Shown here: piece after piece, positions 1 to 8,801 of the stretch
Position numbering within the stretch: position 1 is the first letter of the stretch
How the letters are laid out: each line of letters starts with the position of its first letter
Source: an uncultured Desulfospira sp.
GTDB taxonomy: Bacteria; Desulfobacterota; Desulfobacteria; Desulfobacterales; Desulfobacteraceae
Length of the DNA stretch: 64,000 nt
Assembly: GCA_963663165.1 (NCBI GenBank)
Contig: OY760175.1
Coordinates: 4,096,001-4,160,000 of the forward strand
Reading direction: 5' to 3'
Made by a program: the position numbers and the translations under genes
The notes under the pieces: model-generated
Seen by the model: the letters and a program-made list of their open reading frames with translations, nothing else
What the model was told of the DNA's origin: nothing
Database searches by the model: none

Positions 1-1317
1 CTTTGCCTGGCTGGCACAGCAATGGCGGCAACAAATGCAGCGGATGTAACCACCATTGCCAAAGAGGCTTTTATTTACGCCTATCCCATGCTGTACAACT
101 ACAAAACCATGGCCGAACAGACCCAGGAATCGTTTTCATCAGCCTATATCGGGGGCTTTGGCCGTTTCAGGCATTATTCCAAAACCTATACCCCCGATGA
201 TACGGATATTGTGACCCCCAACAATGACACCCCCTATTCATGGGCCTGGCTTGATTTAAGAAGGGAGCCGTGGGTTTTAAAAGTTCCCGCACTGCCCAAA
301 GACCGGTACAATGTGTTCCAGTGGTTTGATCTGTATACCCACAACTTTGCCTATGTGGGGGTCCGCGCCACCGGTTATGAGGCCGGCACCTACCTTTTTG
401 CAGGACCCCACTGGGAAGGAACGGTGCCGGAAGGGATCACCAAAGTCTTCCGGTCTGAGAGCGATATCATCGGCACCCTGACCCGGACCGGCACCAACGG
501 GCCGGTCAGAGAACTGCAACAGCAGTACGGGCTTTTGCCCTTGAGCGAGTTTGCCGGCGGACGCCCGCCAATGCCTGCGCCGGCTGTCCACTGGCCGGTC
601 TGGAATGAAAAAACGGCCTTGTCCGCCAATTTTATTTCCTATCTTAACTTTCTGCTGGGGTTTACCAGGCCCCATGAATCGGAAAAAGTGCTGCTTTCCC
701 GCTTTGGGGCCATCGGCATCGGCCCGAACCGCCCCTTTAACCCGGCCGCCCTGTCCGAAGACACCCGCAACGCCATTGAAGAGGGGGTAAAACTAGGCTT
801 AAAAAAGCTTGAGGAAGAGGCTGCCAAACTCAAAGGGTCTTCCGGGCTTTTCGGAACCAGGGAATTTTTAAAAAATGATTACACCAAAAGGGCTTTGGGG
901 GCCATGGTCGGCATTTACGGCAATTCCCTGGAAGAGGCCTACTATGCCTCGCCAACCAGAGACAACAACGGCAATCCACTGGACGGCAACCACCAATATG
1001 AACTTCGGTTTGAAAAGGGGAACCTGCCCCCGGTCAAGCTTTTCTGGTCTTTTACCATGTACCGGCTTCCCGAACGGCTCCTGGCGGCCAATGAAATCAA
1101 CCGGTACTCCATCGGAGACCGAACCGATGGCCTTATAACAGCCAAAGACGGCTCATTGACCATCTATATTCAATCCACCCCGCCGGATGGCGACAAAAAG
1201 GCCAACTGGCTTCCTTCGCCAAAGGGGCCCTTTTCTATCATCGGCCGGTTTTACGGCCCGGACCCGTCCCTCATCGACGGCACGTATAAGATGCCGGTAC
1301 CCCGGCTTATCAAATAA
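1..1317 (+). CDS. DUF1254/DUF1214 domain protein, probably exported (5' end outside window)
   Basis: Motifs 'AYIYAYP'-like, 'VTPNNDTPYSWAWLDL' and 'FWSFTMY...NRYSIG...NWLP'; the frame is open from base 1 (LCLAGTAMA resembles the end of a signal peptide). Confidence 0.85.
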   Translation, partial: LCLAGTAMAATNAADVTTIAKEAFIYAYPMLYNYKTMAEQTQESFSSAYIGGFGRFRHYSKTYTPDDTDIVTPNNDTPYSWAWLDLRREPWVLKVPALPKDRYNVFQWFDLYTHNFAYVGVRATGYEAGTYLFAGPHWEGTVPEGITKVFRSESDIIGTLTRTGTNGPVRELQQQYGLLPLSEFAGGRPPMPAPAVHWPVWNEKTALSANFISYLNFLLGFTRPHESEKVLLSRFGAIGIGPNRPFNPAALSEDTRNAIEEGVKLGLKKLEEEAAKLKGSSGLFGTREFLKNDYTKRALGAMVGIYGNSLEEAYYASPTRDNNGNPLDGNHQYELRFEKGNLPPVKLFWSFTMYRLPERLLAANEINRYSIGDRTDGLITAKDGSLTIYIQSTPPDGDKKANWLPSPKGPFSIIGRFYGPDPSLIDGTYKMPVPRLIK

Positions 1318-1425
1318 CGGTCATACCCTTAATGAAACTGAAGATGCCGGCAACGGCAGGCTATAAATTGGGCACCACAGGTGCTTCGCCCTCTTGTCTC
1401 TTGTTTCTTGTCTCCAGTTTCTTAT

Positions 1426-1460
1426 AAAAAACGCCCCGGACAGCCGCAGCCGCCCGGGGC
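1426..1460 (-). terminator. Probable intrinsic terminator of the flagellin gene
   Basis: GCCCCGG (1433-1439)/CCGGGGC (1454-1460) stem followed by a T6 run on the minus strand, just after the stop at 1483. Confidence 0.6.
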
Positions 1461-1482
1461 TCTTAGTTATGTCACGGCCTGA

Positions 1483-3870
1483 TTACTGAAGCAGGGTTGT
1501 GATGTTTTCAGTGGATGCATTGGCCTGGGCAAGGGCATAGGAACTGGTCTGCGCCAGGAGTGACAGTTTAGCATAAGTGGCCGTTTCCTCGGCAAAGTCC
1601 ACATCTCTCAAAGTCGATTCAGAGGCCTGGACATTGGTCTTGGTTACGGTCATGTTTGAAATGGAAGAGGAAAGCTGGTTCTGTACCGACCCCAGAGAAC
1701 TCCGGGTGGCGTCCAGATCTGCCAGGGCAGCCTCTGCAATCTCAATGGCAATGGTGGCATCCGCCTGGGTCAGAACGCTCAGGTCCGCCAGGGTCAGGCT
1801 CTCCTGGCCGGAAATGGTGACGCTTCCCTCGTCGGTATCAATGACCAGCTCCGAACCGGCGGCAATGACACTTTTAGCCTCCAGGGTCATATCATCGGAC
1901 AAGGTAACATTATTTGAGAGGGTAACATCCTCTGTAATTTCAGAACCGGCGGTGATGGTAAAGTCAGATCCGCCGTTGATGTTGACCACCATATCCTGCT
2001 GTACCGTGGTTCCGCTCTCCAGTACGGTTCCCTTTGCCAGGGTGGTCCCGGCGGCAAGGTCCATATCCTCAGACAGGGTGGTCTGGGTAACATTAACCGT
2101 GCCCTCAATGGCCGAATCCTCCGCCAGTGTCGAAGCCGACATGATGGTTGAGCCCACTGCCACGTCCATATCTTCCGTGGTAATGAGGTTGGCGTTGAGT
2201 GTGGTGGTGTCCCCAAGGGTGGAACCGGCTGTCAGGGTTGATCCGGTAAAAATGGTTGACCCGTCCTCAAGGGTCATCTCTTCAGCCATGGTAACGTCAT
2301 CACTGATGGTGAAGTCCGCCCCGAGTTCCGTACCGGCGGCCAGAATGGAACCGGTGGCAATGGTGGTGTCATCGGACAGGGTCATGTCCGAGGTGACAAT
2401 CAGATCATTGGACAAGGAGACATCGGCCGTCAGGGTGCTTCCGGCGTCATAGGACTGAGAACCGCTTGTAAAGCTGACCGTGAGTACGGTGCCGGCACCA
2501 AGGGTTGTTCCGGAATTAAGGGTTGAACCGGCCGTAACCGTCATCTCCTCATCCAGGGCTGTGGCGGCCTTGCCGACTTCAATGTCCCCTGTAATGGTCG
2601 TTCCTTCGGACAGTACGGAACCGCTTTTCAAAATAGAGCCGGCCGCAAGCTCATAATCGCCCTCTGTGTCGGTTATCTTATCAACCGTGGCCGTCCCCCC
2701 AAGAACCGTGTCCGCCGTTAGAACCGTATCCGTGACCAGGGTGGATTCGTCGGCCACTGTGGTGGTGTCGGCGGTGATCATCTTGGCATTCAAGACGATT
2801 TTGTCCTCTGTCCCCCCCGAGGTGGTGGTGCTGATGTTAAAGCTGCTGGAACCTTCCTGGGTCAGGGTGATATACCCGATGGTGGACAGATCTTCAGCTG
2901 ACTGGTCACCAAAAACGTCACCGGTGTCGCCGGTAACATAAATGGCCCGGCCGTCTTCCGAGGTGAGGGTCAGGGTGCCATTGTCTTCAATGGCGGCAGA
3001 CACGCCGGTTTCCGTGGTCTTGTCATTGATGGCCGTGACCAGGGCCGCATCGGAATCGTTGTCTTCCACGTTGATGGCGCCGATGACCACACCGTTAATG
3101 GAAAAGTCGGATCCGGTGCTCCCTTCCTGAATGGCTTCTTCGGTGGTGCTTTCCACCACGGCCGTGGCGCTGATGCCGGTCAGATAGGTCACGGAGTTGA
3201 TCTCGTCGGCCAGGGCGCCCATACCGTTTTCGGCATCGTTGTTTTGCAAAATTTCAATGGTTTCCAGTTCCACTTCCTCCCCGTCAATGGCCGAGGTAAT
3301 GGTCAGGGCCACGACACCACCTTCTTCGTCGTCCAGCTCCAGGGTAGCTGTTGAAATGTGGCCGGTCTGGGTGGACTCACAAGAGCCGACGCTGATGGTA
3401 GCGGTATCGTCGGAAGTGGAGCCGGTCTGAATGGTCTTATTGGTAAAGGCACCGTTCAGGAGCTGCTGCCCGTTGTAGGACGTGGTTTTGGCAATGGTAT
3501 CCAGTTCCTCCAGCAGCTTATCGATATCCTCCTGGATGGCAGAGCGGGTATCGGTTGTCTGGGTGTCGGAAGCCGCCTGGATGGCCTTTGTCTTAATGGT
3601 ATTCACAATGCTGATAGACTCTTCCAAGGCACCGTCGGCTGTCTGGACGATAGAAACGCCGTCATTGGCGTTCTGGATGCCCTGCCCGAGTCCCAGATAC
3701 TGGGACTTGAGAGAGTCGGCAATGGTCATACCGGATGCATCATCGGCTGCCCTGTTGATTCTCAGACCCGTGGACAGCCTTTCAAGAGATGAAGACATCG
3801 CGGTATCGTTGCTGAGCATGTTCCGATGGGCGGTCAGTGCGGCTACATTGGTGTTAATACTTAATGACAT
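1483..3870 (-). CDS. fliC: Flagellin (795 aa) with a large repetitive central insertion
   Basis: N-terminal SINTNVAAL...LERLSTGLRINRAADDASG and C-terminal RSSLGSVQNQL...RDVDFAEE...LAQAN; RBS AGGAGG before the ATG at 3870. Confidence 0.95.
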   Translation of the reverse strand: MSLSINTNVAALTAHRNMLSNDTAMSSSLERLSTGLRINRAADDASGMTIADSLKSQYLGLGQGIQNANDGVSIVQTADGALEESISIVNTIKTKAIQAASDTQTTDTRSAIQEDIDKLLEELDTIAKTTSYNGQQLLNGAFTNKTIQTGSTSDDTATISVGSCESTQTGHISTATLELDDEEGGVVALTITSAIDGEEVELETIEILQNNDAENGMGALADEINSVTYLTGISATAVVESTTEEAIQEGSTGSDFSINGVVIGAINVEDNDSDAALVTAINDKTTETGVSAAIEDNGTLTLTSEDGRAIYVTGDTGDVFGDQSAEDLSTIGYITLTQEGSSSFNISTTTSGGTEDKIVLNAKMITADTTTVADESTLVTDTVLTADTVLGGTATVDKITDTEGDYELAAGSILKSGSVLSEGTTITGDIEVGKAATALDEEMTVTAGSTLNSGTTLGAGTVLTVSFTSGSQSYDAGSTLTADVSLSNDLIVTSDMTLSDDTTIATGSILAAGTELGADFTISDDVTMAEEMTLEDGSTIFTGSTLTAGSTLGDTTTLNANLITTEDMDVAVGSTIMSASTLAEDSAIEGTVNVTQTTLSEDMDLAAGTTLAKGTVLESGTTVQQDMVVNINGGSDFTITAGSEITEDVTLSNNVTLSDDMTLEAKSVIAAGSELVIDTDEGSVTISGQESLTLADLSVLTQADATIAIEIAEAALADLDATRSSLGSVQNQLSSSISNMTVTKTNVQASESTLRDVDFAEETATYAKLSLLAQTSSYALAQANASTENITTLLQ

Positions 3871-4007
3871 GTGTTTCCTCCTTGATAAAGTTAAGGGTGG
3901 CGGCATCAGTGCCTGCTCACCTTGTGGCACACCGGGTATACATGGTGTGCGCCTGGGCTTGGTTTCGGCGGGGGCCAGCCGCCCGGATCAATCCGCTGTT
4001 AGCTTTC

Positions 4008-4036
4008 GTATCGCAAGAAAACTAGTGGACCTTTAG
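4008..4036 (-). promoter_or_regulatory. Putative sigma-28 (FliA) promoter for flagellin
   Basis: Minus strand reads CTAAAGG...TGCGATAC, similar to TAAA-N15/16-GCCGATAA, ~140 bp upstream of the start; GGA motifs in the leader could be CsrA sites. Confidence 0.55.
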
Positions 4037-4267
4037 GAGTTAAAACGCGCCGTTATCCCTCCCACAGAAAAAGTCTCAACAGATTGGTTTTTGAATGTTA
4101 TTTAACGAAACTGACGAGGGTTAAGTTTTTCTAGAAAACAATCAAGTGAGATTTATCGTCAAAATAATTTTTGGTTTTTTCAAGAAATCAACATAGGGCT
4201 TGGCCGGGAGCCGGTGTTTGGACGCAGACGGGTGGCTTTGTGAGCTGAGGCTCCTCTATCGAGCCGT

Positions 4268-5206
4268 TCAAACACCAAAACCAGCGGCACGGATTTGTGG
4301 CTTCTGCCTGAAACTGTTGGGAAAATGGGTATAATGGAGTTCCAAAGCCTCCCAGGGGGTTTTTTGCTTTAATGCCCCTAAAGGAAACCGGGTGTTGTAC
4401 CGGGAAATGTATTTTTTAAACTCGTCATTGGAAGACCAGGGCAGTTCCCATCCCGTTGTTTTTCCTTTGGCCCTAAGGCCGGCAAGAGACTGGGCAAGTT
4501 TGCTGACAGCCTTGGGATACGGGATGTCCATATGAAACGCAGAAAGCCTGAATGACCGGCACAGATGTTCAACGGCAAAGGTGTGTTGCTGAGCATCAGC
4601 ATTCTCCAATGTCAGGTCAATGGGGTCTGTGTAAATGATCCCCAATACCCTTAACGGAAGGGACTGAACCTGCTGTGACAAAAAATCGGTTACAGAGTCT
4701 GAAAAACCGGCATGAAAGGTTTTAAAGGTGCAGTCCAGAAGGGTATGAAAAAGAACAGGCTCTCCTTTTTCAAAAAAAGAGGGCAGTTGAAAGCAGTTAT
4801 AGCAAAGATAGGACCCGGCGTAATCAGACAGGTCTACCGGGACAGCATGCTTCAGGGAGGGCAGCCGGGAAATGGCATACCGTTTCAGGCACCGGTTCAG
4901 GCTGGCCCTTGAGCAGTTAATATCCAGAAAAGACTGGGCCATGCGGTGCAAATCATCAAGCCCTGCCCGTGTGGACAGGCGGCACAGGACAATCTTGATT
5001 TCTTCCATGGGGGCCAGGGCGGTGGTGACTTTTTTGGGGGCATGAGACCGGTCAAATACTTCGGTACGGTTCCGCCACCTTCTGATGGTGGTTTTGCTTA
5101 CCCCGGTCATTTCTGCCAGAGCGGCGGTACTCAGGTTGGGATTGCTCTGGATAAAAGCCCGCTGGGCCGGTGTGGTGGTCGCGTTTTTATGGAGATGTAT
5201 TTTCAT
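4268..5206 (-). CDS. IS481-family transposase-derived HTH protein with degenerate DDE core
   Basis: N-terminal LHKNATTTP...GVSKTTIRRWR...LDDL...SRASLNRCLKRYAISRLP and C-terminal YN...ALKQKTPWEAL match IS481 transposases; RBS AGGTG before the ATG at 5206. Confidence 0.7.
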   Translation of the reverse strand: MKIHLHKNATTTPAQRAFIQSNPNLSTAALAEMTGVSKTTIRRWRNRTEVFDRSHAPKKVTTALAPMEEIKIVLCRLSTRAGLDDLHRMAQSFLDINCSRASLNRCLKRYAISRLPSLKHAVPVDLSDYAGSYLCYNCFQLPSFFEKGEPVLFHTLLDCTFKTFHAGFSDSVTDFLSQQVQSLPLRVLGIIYTDPIDLTLENADAQQHTFAVEHLCRSFRLSAFHMDIPYPKAVSKLAQSLAGLRAKGKTTGWELPWSSNDEFKKYISRYNTRFPLGALKQKTPWEALELHYTHFPNSFRQKPQIRAAGFGV

Positions 5207-5355
5207 TGTGTCACCTGATGTCTCTTTTTGTTTCCCGGCCTTTGGCATTTCCTTCAAATAAAAAAATCACCAAAACACCGCTTTCCTGTCATTATCAGGG
5301 CACAAACCATACCTAAGATTAAAACATAATAATTTCAGTTTGTTACAATCCACAC

Positions 5356-5432
5356 TTTTGCTATGGAGTAATTTATATTATCCTATAGAGTAAGTTTTGG
5401 TTAAGTTACCCCATAGGGTAAAAATAGGGTAA
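5356..5432. promoter_or_regulatory. Cluster of ATRGRGTAA half-sites / 16-bp palindromic operators
   Basis: ATRGRGTAA at 5363, 5385, 5413 and 5424; palindromes TTATCCTATAGAGTAA (5378-5393) and TTACCCCATAGGGTAA (5406-5421). Confidence 0.55.
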
Positions 5433-5611
5433 AATTACAGCGGTAAACAAATTAGCGCGGGTTTTTGCAACGTTGTCCGTTATTCTATATTGAGGGGAAT
5501 CCAGAACGGCCACGGACCGTCCGAATTCCCGCGCAATGATCTGCTTAAAACAACTATTATGTTTTAATACAGACGGTTAGTTGAGTGCTTTATGCAAACA
5601 AGGAGGTAAAA

Positions 5612-6028
5612 ATGGAATGCAAGGACGCATTAAAGGCCATGGGGGCCTGGATGGACAACGAACTTTCCAAAGAAGAATCCACTGTTCTAAAACAGCATAT
5701 TTCCCAATGCGCGGAATGTGCTGCTGAAGCAGAAAATTTACAGGAACTGATAGCCGCCTTAAACCGGATTTGCCCTGAAGATCCTCCCCATGGGCTGATG
5801 GAAAAAACCCTTTACCGGTATGAGCAGGCCATAACACCCCGGGCAAAAGAGACATGGCAGGGACAAACCGGATGGATCAGAAAAATAGGGCTTGCGGCCG
5901 GAAGCATGGCCGGCTTGTGGGCCGGGTCTATGCTGGGAATGCGGCTGGTGTCTGCCCAGACGTTCTCTCCCCTGGACCTTATGGCAGCCCTTTGTTTTTC
6001 AGGAGGTCTGGCATCATTATGGGCATAG
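5612..6028 (+). CDS. Zinc-finger (zf-HC2) anti-sigma factor, membrane anchored
   Basis: MEC...WMDNEL...HISQCAEC (HxxxCxxC) followed by a TM helix; RBS AGGAGG. Confidence 0.85.
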   Translation: MECKDALKAMGAWMDNELSKEESTVLKQHISQCAECAAEAENLQELIAALNRICPEDPPHGLMEKTLYRYEQAITPRAKETWQGQTGWIRKIGLAAGSMAGLWAGSMLGMRLVSAQTFSPLDLMAALCFSGGLASLWA

Positions 6029-6507
6029 CACCGTTGAAAAAAGGACTCTGGTTCCTGCTGGCCTTCTCCGTTGCCCTGAATATCGGGTTCATTATCACGG
6101 TAACGACCCACAAAAGCCCCGGTCCCATGGGATTTCCGAAAAAAGCCCCGCTGCCGCCGTTCTTGCCCGGGATCCCGGCTTTAGAACAGATGGGCCTGCC
6201 CCATGATGTCAGAACAAAAGCAACTGAGGCCATCCACCGGCTGGTAGACGCCCATGGCCAAATGATGTCCCAGATCTGGCTTAAAGAGGATAAACTGCTG
6301 GAGTTAATTGGCCGGCCAGGCCCCCTGGATAAAAACAGCCTTGAAACAAACAGCCGTGAAATCGTTCAGATTCTGGATCGGAACATCCGTGATAAAGCGG
6401 AATATTTTATCGAAATCAGAAACCTGATCGGGCCTGAAAAAAGTGAATATTTTTTTTCCAAAGTGCGTGAACAGTTTAAACAGGGCATGATGAGAGAAAG
6501 GCATTAA
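6019..6507 (+). CDS. Periplasmic heavy-metal sensor / Spy-CpxP-like helical protein
   Basis: N-terminal TM with 'SVALNIG' motif and a helical body; lies between anti-sigma and ECF sigma genes. Confidence 0.65.
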   Translation: MGIAPLKKGLWFLLAFSVALNIGFIITVTTHKSPGPMGFPKKAPLPPFLPGIPALEQMGLPHDVRTKATEAIHRLVDAHGQMMSQIWLKEDKLLELIGRPGPLDKNSLETNSREIVQILDRNIRDKAEYFIEIRNLIGPEKSEYFFSKVREQFKQGMMRERH

Positions 6508-6509
6508 GC

Positions 6510-7055
6510 TTGGATCTTTCCCGCTCCTATAAACAAAAAACCGACGTTGACCTGATCAGCCGCATCCATAAGGGGGATAAAAAGGCCTTTAAAGAAATTC
6601 TGGTCCGGTACCAGAGCGGGGTATACGGATTTGCCTTTTCCCTTTTAAGCGACCCCCATGAAGCCGAGGACATTTCCCAGGAAGTTTTTTTAAGGCTTTA
6701 CCGAAAGGCCCGGTCCTACCGGGCCTACACCTCCCTGCGCACCTATCTGTTCCATATCACCCGAAACCTGTGCATTGACCATTTGCGCAAAAAACGCCCG
6801 GAAACCATGCCTGACCCGCCTGAGCCAATCTGTGCCCGGACCCCTTACAGCCATCTGTGTGACTCGGAACTCAGAAGAAAGATTGACGGGTTGATCTCAA
6901 GCCTGCCCGAAAACCAGGGAACGGCCATCTACCTTCGCCATGTCCAGGGAATGAACTACCAGGAAATTGCCCAGACCTTAGGAGTGACCGTCCGGGCTGT
7001 TGAATCCCTTCTCAGCCGGGCCAGGCGAACTTTTCGCAGTCGGTTCAGGTCTTAG
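6510..7055 (+). CDS. ECF-type RNA polymerase sigma factor
   Basis: Region 2 'AEDISQEVFLRLY...YLFHITRNLCIDHLRK', region 4 'YQEIAQTLG...VESLLSRAR'; TTG start. Confidence 0.92.
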   Translation: MDLSRSYKQKTDVDLISRIHKGDKKAFKEILVRYQSGVYGFAFSLLSDPHEAEDISQEVFLRLYRKARSYRAYTSLRTYLFHITRNLCIDHLRKKRPETMPDPPEPICARTPYSHLCDSELRRKIDGLISSLPENQGTAIYLRHVQGMNYQEIAQTLGVTVRAVESLLSRARRTFRSRFRS

Positions 7056-7229
7056 AAGCACAACCCTTTCTAACATACTGTTTTCGAAACATATATTAAT
7101 CAAATTTTCTTTCCCGGCGCAAATGAATTTCGCTAAATGTGAACTAAATGACATCATTTTTATAGAAGGTTTTTCCCAATTTAACCGTTATTTTATATAG
7201 AAAAGCCGGATGCGATAGCGGTTTTGTTT

Positions 7230-7279
7230 TTTTTGCAAGGACACTCATGGCTGATTTTTGCAAGGACACTCATGGCTGA
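7230..7279 (+). repeat. Perfect 25-bp tandem duplication covering RBS and start codon
   Basis: TTTTTGCAAGGACACTCATGGCTGA at 7230-7254 and 7255-7279. Confidence 0.95.
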
Positions 7280-8345
7280 CAGGAAATTAGAAGACATAGC
7301 GGTAATCGGGGCCAACCACGGGCTTTCAACGGTGTTGAAACAGGTGGGGCAGGTCGCCCGGCTGGACACCTCTGTTCTGCTGTTAGGGGAAACCGGCGTC
7401 GGCAAAGGCCTGATAGCCGCCCTGATTCACAACATGTCTTTGAGGATCCAAGGCCCTTTTATCACCGTTAACTGCGGCGCCATCCCGGATACCCTCCTGG
7501 ACAGTGAGCTTTTCGGCCATGAAAAAGGCGCCTTTACCGGTGCCGTTTTAAAAAAACAGGGCCGGTTTGAACGGGCCAATAATGGAACCCTGTTCCTGGA
7601 TGAAATCGCGGAACTGCCCCTTTCCGCCCAGGTCCGGCTGCTCAATGTCCTTCAAAACCGGGAAATTGAACGTGTGGGCGGCAGTTCTTTTGTTTCCCTG
7701 AATATACGGGTCATTTCCGCCACCAACAAAGACCTGGAATCCATGGTGGGTTCGGGCAGGTTTAGAAAAGATCTCTGGTTTCGCCTCAATGTGTTTCCCA
7801 TTCAAATTCCGCCCTTGCGCCACCGAAAAGAGGATATCCCGGATCTGACCAGCCATTTTATCCGGAAGACCGCAGAAAAACTGAAACTGGACCCCATCCC
7901 CCGGATCGGCCAGAATGCCCTTGAACAGCTAATGGCTTACCACTGGCCGGGAAATGTCCGGGAACTTGAAAACATGGTGGAACGGGCCATGATCTGCTGC
8001 AAATGGGGCCAGCTGGACTTTACCGGCATCCTGCCCCAGTTCGTCCCAATTCCGGGGACCCCGGTGGATGACGAGTCTATGGCCTTTTACAACCGGATTG
8101 CCGCCGTGCATGACATTTCCCAGGTGGTGGCTGTCGGCGCCGGACCTGAAAAATCCTTTCTGAGCCTGAACCAGGTAAACCGGATCCATATTTCCAATGC
8201 CCTTGCCTCAGCCAAAGGAAAAATAAACGGACCGGGAGGCGCGGCCCAGCTTCTGCAAATCCACCCCAACACCCTTCGAAAACGGATGGACCGGCTCGGC
8301 ATTCAGTACGGAAAAAAACGGGCCCGGTCCATGAGCCGGTCCTGA
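7272..8345 (+). CDS. Sigma-54-dependent transcriptional activator (AAA+ and Fis-type HTH, no N-terminal sensor)
   Basis: Walker [37 protein letters not shown] and C-terminal GAAQLL.IHPNTLR. Confidence 0.92.
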
Positions 8346-8410
8346 TAATCCCCCCTTTTACAAGGTCTTCCAAAAAAAATCAGGTGTGGGATTAAAGTTA
8401 ATCAATAAAA

Positions 8411-8801
8411 TGGGCTTGGGATATGGGACTTGGGGATTGCAGCGTCCGTGGCCTCCCCAAGTCCCAAGCCGGTAGTTAGCATGGCCCCGTTTGATTTACC
8501 CCTCACAAACAACATGTTATATGGACAATGGTGGGCAACGCTTTAAAAAAATTCTCGCAAAGGCGCAACGGCGCAAAGCTTAACTTCCCTTGGGCAAATA
8601 GTATTCTTTGCGCCTTAGCGCCTTTGCGTGAGAATATAAAAAAAGAGGGCGAAGCCCTCAATTTTAGGATGACAGAGTAAGGAGAAAAGCATTCCATACA
8701 TTGAGAACCTCTTGCTACCCCACATCCCAAGTCTCAACAATATACATTATATTCCCTACCATCAAAATCAACATCGCCTGCCGGCAGGTTACATGCCCCT
8801 G
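8411..8801 (+). mobile_element. Degenerate, interrupted copy of the heptamer-containing ISAs1-type MITE
   Basis: 8411-8468 and ~8719-8801 match the internal and right parts of the 12533-12755 element; right end TTACATGC-CCCTG; ~250 bp insert in the middle; left TIR not recognisable. Confidence 0.65.
8552..8634. repeat. Octamer-repeat (CGCAAAGG) inverted repeat / REP-like hairpin
   Basis: TTCTCGCAAAGGCGCAACGGCGCAAAG ... CTTTGCGCCTTAGCGCCTTTGCGTGAGAA. Confidence 0.8.

Follow-up and report, generated by a model that had tools for sequence, protein, structure and literature searches.

Conversion of a transposase into a transcription factor with TIR-derived sites is a textbook route in eukaryotes, and FHY3/FAR1 is a whole transposase of the plant Mutator family turned transcriptional activator. 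A title cited in PMC2910039 names FHY3/FAR1 as transposase-derived transcription factors. PMC9062482 presents SETMAR/Metnase as a domesticated DDE-type transposase that kept its ancestral TIR binding and affects host expression via TIR-derived sites; it is eukaryotic, fused to a SET domain, and has thousands of scattered sites. TldR proteins are described in a preprint as nuclease-dead TnpB repressors that are RNA-guided, RuvC-derived, and block promoters (10.1101/2023.11.30.569447). The flagellar regulator FliZ, according to one passage of PMC3814329, has a DNA-binding region like that of a class of mobile-element enzymes, the phage integrases.

The window analyzed here, a 64,000-nucleotide stretch of the 6.74-Mb genome of an uncultured Desulfospira sp. 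(G000), contains a gene for a DDE-dead IS481-derived protein of 312 aa (4268..5206, minus strand). IS481 transposases (NF033577; ISKpn27, ISGlo3, and ISRme14-like) are about 28-31% identical to this protein over the full length and share with it the fold, an N-terminal LHKNAxTTP, two HTH regions, and the TIR inner box, whereas the dead protein has no triad, no TGT...ACA ends, and no target duplication, and is found as one copy per clade per genome in a fixed host context. FHY3/FAR1 would be alike in principle, with unrelated sequence and targets. The dead transposase resembles SETMAR in being immobile, intact, under purifying selection, and accompanied by TIR-derived sites at host genes; unlike SETMAR, it is bacterial, has no fusion partner, and has a small number of sites, which stand at set distances from promoters. 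It likewise resembles TldR in being transposon-derived, catalytically dead, located beside flagellin, and tied to an alternative flagellar surface. Unlike TldR, it derives from a DDE transposase and is predicted to recognize DNA directly via TIR boxes upstream of promoters, its inferred targets extend to hook and cap genes, and no record in the phage collection searched matched it. A sequence scan of window positions 1300-8800 gave no Rfam family at its curated score. FliZ resembles phage integrases, not DDE transposases, and the PMC3814329 passage does not state an element-end origin for its sites. By comparison, the dead transposase would work like SETMAR or FHY3/FAR1 in principle and be TldR-like in its target, and belongs to neither. 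The parallel with TldR had been drawn in an initial annotation of this DNA. It holds in outline only, and IS481/integrase homology upholds the assignment to a transposase family other than TnpB; however, the box here would be read by the protein, the predicted regulon includes fliD and flgDEKL, and the promoter geometry favors activation over repression.

The dead transposase, its family, and its neighbors

The reading frame at 4268-5206 is uninterrupted, has the same orientation as the gene for a 795-aa flagellin (1483..3870, minus strand; Pfam Flagellin_N/C), and ends 231 bp ahead of the sigma-28-like -35 box, in agreement with the earlier description of an intact, co-oriented 312-aa frame about 230 bp from the promoter. 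The resemblance to IS481 transposases seen at that stage was also borne out: the protein matched the NCBIfam IS481 model (NF033577) with an E-value of 1.8e-18 and showed an integrase/RNase H core. Its score of 67 bits lay below the model's cut-off of 224, as did those of three further members of the dead family (52-84 bits), whereas all three active relatives tested exceeded the cut-off. No named family in NCBIfam or Pfam covered the protein, which gave only weak IS481, other transposase, and HTH matches, and a sequence search of solved structures returned nothing beyond short HTH matches. The AlphaFold model (pLDDT 88.9) combined N-terminal helical domains with an RNase H core of the integrase type, corresponding to two helix-turn-helix domains (residues ~1-115) and an inactive RNase H fold (~126-300). 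The RNase H/integrase fold was supported by a Foldseek match to IstA (E 7e-9), and VIA gave a Z of 10.7 and an rmsd of 3.0 across 130 residues against a retroviral integrase.

In an alignment of 105 distinct dead-family sequences and 25 IS481 relatives, the positions of the DDE triad were occupied in the 312-aa protein by N137 (D1), T193 (D2), and A238 (E). None of the 105 dead-family sequences kept D1 or D2, 14 kept E, and none had the complete triad, which was present in 24 of the 25 active relatives. Profile-profile alignment left the register of D1 and D2 unchanged (probability 100) and placed gaps near E, where the alignment is least certain; no conserved acidic column was present in the 9 residues preceding or the 5 following the E column. 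The initial annotation had proposed that the first Asp and the Glu were lost and that only 'YTDP' keeps an acid. The two losses were confirmed, but the acid of 'YTDP', D194, is not at a catalytic position: it aligns with the N of 'TDNG', one column after D2, and is retained in 79/105 dead-family sequences. When positions shared by at least 80% of active transposases were examined, the dead family kept 34 of 47 within residues 1-111 and 12 of 64 in the rest of the protein, and the DNA-binding region was the most constrained portion. This pattern shows that the DNA-binding part is retained and the active site is not. Of five features of IS481 transposases, the 312-aa protein showed only the fold; it failed on the model cut-off, triad, TIR/TSD, and multicopy state.

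A protein search returned 94 matches, mostly full length and 35-88% identical, with Desulfobacter, Desulfospira, Desulfobacula, and Desulforapulum among the sources. Cultured carriers include Desulfospira joergensenii (L012) and Desulfobacter vibrioformis (L010). The gene was present in 29/161 genomes of the family to which the window belongs and in none of 24 genomes sampled from the order's other families. A quick tree (81 rows, including 18 of 67 clade A rows) placed the dead family on one side of a branch against active IS481 with support 100, and clade A was nested inside a basal group B. The clade A gene lay directly upstream of flagellin in 21/22 genomes. The exception, G022, had neither an adjacent flagellin nor an accessory fliD and kept a 24.8-bit box ahead of flgD; its accessory-type flgDEKL and box (L328:12512-20000) seemingly lie within the main flagellar cluster, which suggests module replacement. 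Most group B genes were followed by an EF-hand protein gene, and the group B-type copies in G082 and G137 faced flgL, in a hook module without flagellin. A conserved leader, GAAAGNAGGTGATGYCTATG, was observed 3' of group B genes (L018:9008-9180, L019, L020, L006, L106, L107, L116, and L117); it starts a mini-ORF of 2-4 codons ahead of the EF-hand gene and may represent a regulatory RNA or a leader peptide. One basal group B copy (L200:4614-5900, G072) had both boxes 3' of the gene in the same orientation, unlike other members.

The 795-aa flagellin of the accessory set shared 56% and 51% identity with the two long flagellins of the main cluster, and its central domain consists of a long low-complexity repeat with weak matches to left-handed beta-helices. 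Its leader (window 3870-4000) contains conserved hairpins and ACGGA/GGA motifs that resemble CsrA sites. A short, high-copy, REP-like repeat with inverted arms lies 3' of the flagellin (1330-1430) and had very deep coverage in all four sequencing runs. On the other side of the transposase-derived gene, genes for an anti-sigma factor, a small membrane protein, an ECF sigma factor, and a sensor-less sigma-54 activator (5612..8345, plus strand; Pfam) travel with part of clade A, the ECF and activator genes recurring beside it in L011-L014, L016, and L022; these neighbors are at most candidate parts of the system.

A TIR-derived box and its inferred regulon

Comparison of intergenic regions yielded a conserved 13-bp motif, RTCTCA-N3-GATT, which was recorded before transposon ends were examined. 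The ends of active IS481 relatives read TGT-N3-GTCCCG-N3-GATT, so that the family box and the TIR consensus differ at two positions (GTCTCA versus GTCCCG). The window contains two copies upstream of the flagellin. The distal box ATCTCACTTGATT (4140..4152, minus strand) has the left-end orientation and stands 116 bp ahead of the sigma-28 -35 box, at a conserved position (-112 to -116). The proximal box GTCTCAACAGATT (4073..4085, plus strand) is in right-end orientation and ends about 36 bp before the -35 box, at a position (-48/-49) conserved in 8 genomes. They ranked first and second genome-wide, respectively, with a matrix built from other species (23 promoter sites from 19 other genomes; the pattern used to pick sites was written after the TIRs were known, and the matrix counts came from promoters only). 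The initial annotation had reported neither TIRs nor a TSD. Complete TIRs and a TSD were indeed not found around the gene, but the inner TIR box occurs at both positions given above.

The promoter-derived matrix placed the TIR box among the top 3 of ~2,100 positions in 37 of 38 active IS481 elements, always at nucleotide 7; of the 54 active loci, 16 were set aside because their TIR pair could not be delimited. None of 2,000 column-permuted matrices reached the score of the promoter matrix on the TIRs. In group B, 9/12 loci carried both end boxes, the left one 32-47 bp before the start codon and the right one over the last codons, at the same codon as the right TIR in active elements. TGT was found outside none of the group B boxes and outside 2/28 clade A boxes, and none of the 22 clade A loci had end boxes flanking the gene. 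The recovery of active TIRs by the promoter matrix, together with the group B end boxes, shows that RTCTCA-N3-GATT is the inner part of the parent transposon's TIR. A matrix from the GC-rich active TIRs gave only modest scores to family sites (2.4 and 5.5 bits for those of the window) and did not discriminate across the genome. An IHF site was also considered; the consensus WATCAA-N4-TTR does not fit the box by eye.

We propose that an IS481 element would have lost its TGT termini and catalytic residues and kept both end boxes, as in group B, where the left box would lie over the gene's own promoter region and the right box 33-34 bp before the sigma-54-like promoter of the next gene. At the clade A stage, the self-flanking boxes would have been lost and boxes would have appeared in flagellar promoters.

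Boxes occurred well beyond the window. The top three matrix sites in G000 were the two window boxes and a box 142 bp before a main-cluster flagellin about 1 Mb away (C1:5139527). The only other inverted box pair precedes fliD (C1:5678258-5678345) and matches the window pair in spacing (66-67 bp) and in its distance from a sigma-28-like promoter; two more boxes face flgD. The boxes before fliD, flgD, and the second flagellin lie 1 to 1.6 Mb from the window gene. This genome carries two sets of flgD, flgE, flgK, flgL, and fliD, and in G002, G089, G096, and G155 the accessory set is contiguous with the dead-transposase gene. The accessory FliD type (at least 53% identity) was present in 19/20 clade A genomes and in none of 25 others, and it was the sole FliD found in 11 of the 20. 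A box of at least 10 bits preceded accessory fliD at all 18 clade A loci, main fliD of the same genomes in 0/5 cases, and fliD of other genomes in 1/13 (G082, which has a group B copy), against a background rate of 1.8%. The combined box-plus-promoter pattern matched in 19/161 genomes, all clade A; the clade A targets form one inherited module, so that genome counts are not independent and correspond to about four promoter types. Boxes have also decayed: the proximal fliC box is degenerate in most genus g3 genomes, the exact pattern being present in 8/22 clade A genomes, and in G001 the intergenic region is partly lost and the distal box survives inside the end of the transposase-derived ORF. 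The sequencing contigs of four runs listed no joint in the promoter region; contigs drop rare forms.

Direction of control and alternative readings

Promoter geometry bears on what binding would do. The sigma-28-like flagellin promoter CTAAAG...TGCGATAC (4008..4036, minus strand) has a spacer extended by one base and a -10 that departs from the consensus. The long spacer was found in 37/38 target sigma-28 promoters compared with 11/49 other flagellin promoters, and C before CGAT in 0/37 compared with 21/49; the comparison set comprised the 49 flagellin promoters with a recognizable box, 45 of 94 having none. All 19 flgD-side sigma-54-like boxes had a non-consensus -12 (TTGG, TTGA, or TTGT instead of TTGC), whereas main-cluster boxes were mostly TTGC. 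The TIR-derived boxes are paired and face inward, the right-end-like member lying closer to the promoter, and at accessory promoters no box overlapped a -35/-24 or -10/-12 element. The proximal box stands ~36 bp from the sigma-28 -35. At flgD the gap to the sigma-54-like box was 43-45 bp in 17/18 cases and 33 in one (44 in G022), and at nine group B loci the right box lay 33-34 bp from the sigma-54-like promoter of the next gene, so that the two classes of gap are one helical turn apart. By general promoter logic, sub-consensus promoters fit activator control, and their combination with upstream, helically phased boxes favors an activator over a TldR-like repressor.

We therefore lean toward a reading in which the IS481-derived dead protein likely binds the 13-bp TIR box and probably activates accessory fliC, fliD, and flgDEKL. 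It would bridge each inward-facing box pair as a transposase pairs two ends, forming a loop of 50-120 bp. The subunit closer to the promoter would assist the sigma-28 or sigma-54 polymerase where promoters are weak, via contact or bending. Opening of sigma-54 promoters requires an AAA+ ATPase, and because the 312-aa protein has no AAA+ domain, it would need a partner there. The main-cluster flagellin has a consensus sigma-54 promoter with a box gap of 31 (G000, G001, and G089); at this different phase the effect may differ, and the box may couple or oppose the two flagellar sets.

The gene itself carries a putative sigma-54-like -24/-12 box (GG-N10-GC; 5300..5313, minus strand), which was present in 9/22 clade A upstream regions and 0/10 other loci. 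The same 9 genomes have copies of the palindrome TTACCCCATRGGGTAA, present three times at 5356..5421, its best match in the genome, and a candidate upstream site for a sigma-54 activator. Together these elements suggest that the gene is a step in a cascade. The palindrome TTACCCCATGGGGTAA of 5356-5421 recurs at G000:C1:5743431, 91 bp before a short 278-aa flagellin-like gene.

The strongest competitor keeps the binding and reverses its sign, with a paired-end loop silencing the accessory hook-filament genes, perhaps by keeping upstream activators out, until a signal lifts it. Transposases often repress by binding their own ends, the evidence on box identity, positions, and group B applies equally here, and the group B left box lies close before the start codon. 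SETMAR-bound loci are reported as repressed (PMC8327481). We nevertheless judge repression unlikely, since the accessory boxes stay off the promoter elements at phase-locked gaps of 33-45 bp, the sub-consensus target promoters need help more than silencing, and the gene is apparently under a sigma-54 promoter, as expected of a cascade step.

Activation and repression both assume that the dead transposase reads the boxes. Alternatively, an unrelated host regulator might do so, with the transposase riding along with the flagellar module; gene and boxes do share one inherited module, so their co-occurrence proves little. However, the box is the TIR of the protein's own ancestors and flanks the group B gene at its old ends, and the DNA-binding region is the best conserved part of the protein. 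Boxes of at least 12 bits were absent from all 63 flagellin promoters taken from the 54 genomes that lack the gene and from 10 flagellin promoters of genomes with group B only, and occurred at 4/20 non-adjacent flagellin promoters of clade A genomes (in one of the four the box overlaps the -10 box and may be due to chance); a boxed main-cluster flagellin was seen only where the gene is present. Upstream of flgD, none of 29 regions from genomes without clade A carried a box, a result of little weight because those flgD genes may sit inside operons. A separate host regulator is thus improbable, and the dead transposase very probably regulates the box-bearing promoters.

A decaying transposon relic, or a non-autonomous element moved by an active IS481, could account for the frameshifted copies in G137 and G101 and for the patchy spread through the family. 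Yet frames were intact across 34-88% identity, and dN/dS was below 0.5 in all 83 usable pairs (median 0.22, maximum 0.47; dS 0.05-1.5; 378 pairs from 28 coding sequences). There was at most one copy per clade per genome; in G000, tblastn with the 312-aa ORF gave a single match at E <1, and no active IS481 relative was found. The near absence of TGT outside the boxes also stands against mobilization, and in G101 the frameshifts hit adjoining flagellar genes as well. Selection and copy-number data largely refute the relic reading, which we rate as very improbable. The domestication proposed at the outset is instead supported by single copy, purifying selection, and flagellin linkage: the gene is neither strain-specific nor neutrally evolving, and its triad is not intact. 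Least credible is inversion or excision of DNA between the inverted boxes (flagellar phase variation) by an altered active site of D158 and D194. D158, although invariant in the dead family, is invariant in active transposases too and lies outside the triad, and D194 aligns with the N of 'TDNG'. The boxes are also missing the terminal bases at which cutting occurs, and the segment between them has no promoter to flip.

Other derivatives and biological meaning

Related derivatives may exist elsewhere. A motif screen of 142 more distant matches picked out 48 long proteins that retain no more than one DDE motif; about ten belong to the dead family, several are plain frameshift products, and the remainder include named clusters from Shewanella, Vibrio, and Avibacterium. 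Nine proteins (P0146, P0135, P0151, P0180, P0172, P0127, P0147, P0115, and P0212) are full-length IS481 derivatives in which the DDE motifs are missing. They come from Shewanella, Psychromonas, Dongshaea, Vibrio, Avibacterium, and Halomonas and carry annotations as regulators or HTH proteins; one has a MarR-like domain fused to it. They are possible independent domestications, and taming of the same IS481 subgroup may recur, judging from the Shewanella, Vibrio, Psychromonas, Halomonas, and Avibacterium derivatives. When 401 genomes were searched at E 1e-28 for the dead derivative of the Vibrio type, without a positive control, no match was obtained. In the literature searched, which covers subscription papers thinly so that a prior mention is possible, no case was found of a bacterial DDE transposase that became a regulator acting through TIR-derived operators.

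Taken from the sequence comparisons, a conserved dead transposase with a TIR-derived regulon appears to be real. We advance more tentatively, as somewhat short of probable, the full picture of a whole bacterial DDE transposase turned activator, in which end-pairing would serve as a promoter-looping switch, the regulon would be seeded by TIRs, and the outer flagellum would be exchanged while the main flagellin is also acted on. The predicted system is a simple switch of one protein and a 13-bp box. Alongside TldR, the dead transposase would provide an independent example of a transposon protein co-opted to remodel the flagellar surface. Intermediate stages survive, namely the active element, the dead element with both end boxes, and the host regulon, and the birth of a regulator and its regulon is therefore directly testable.
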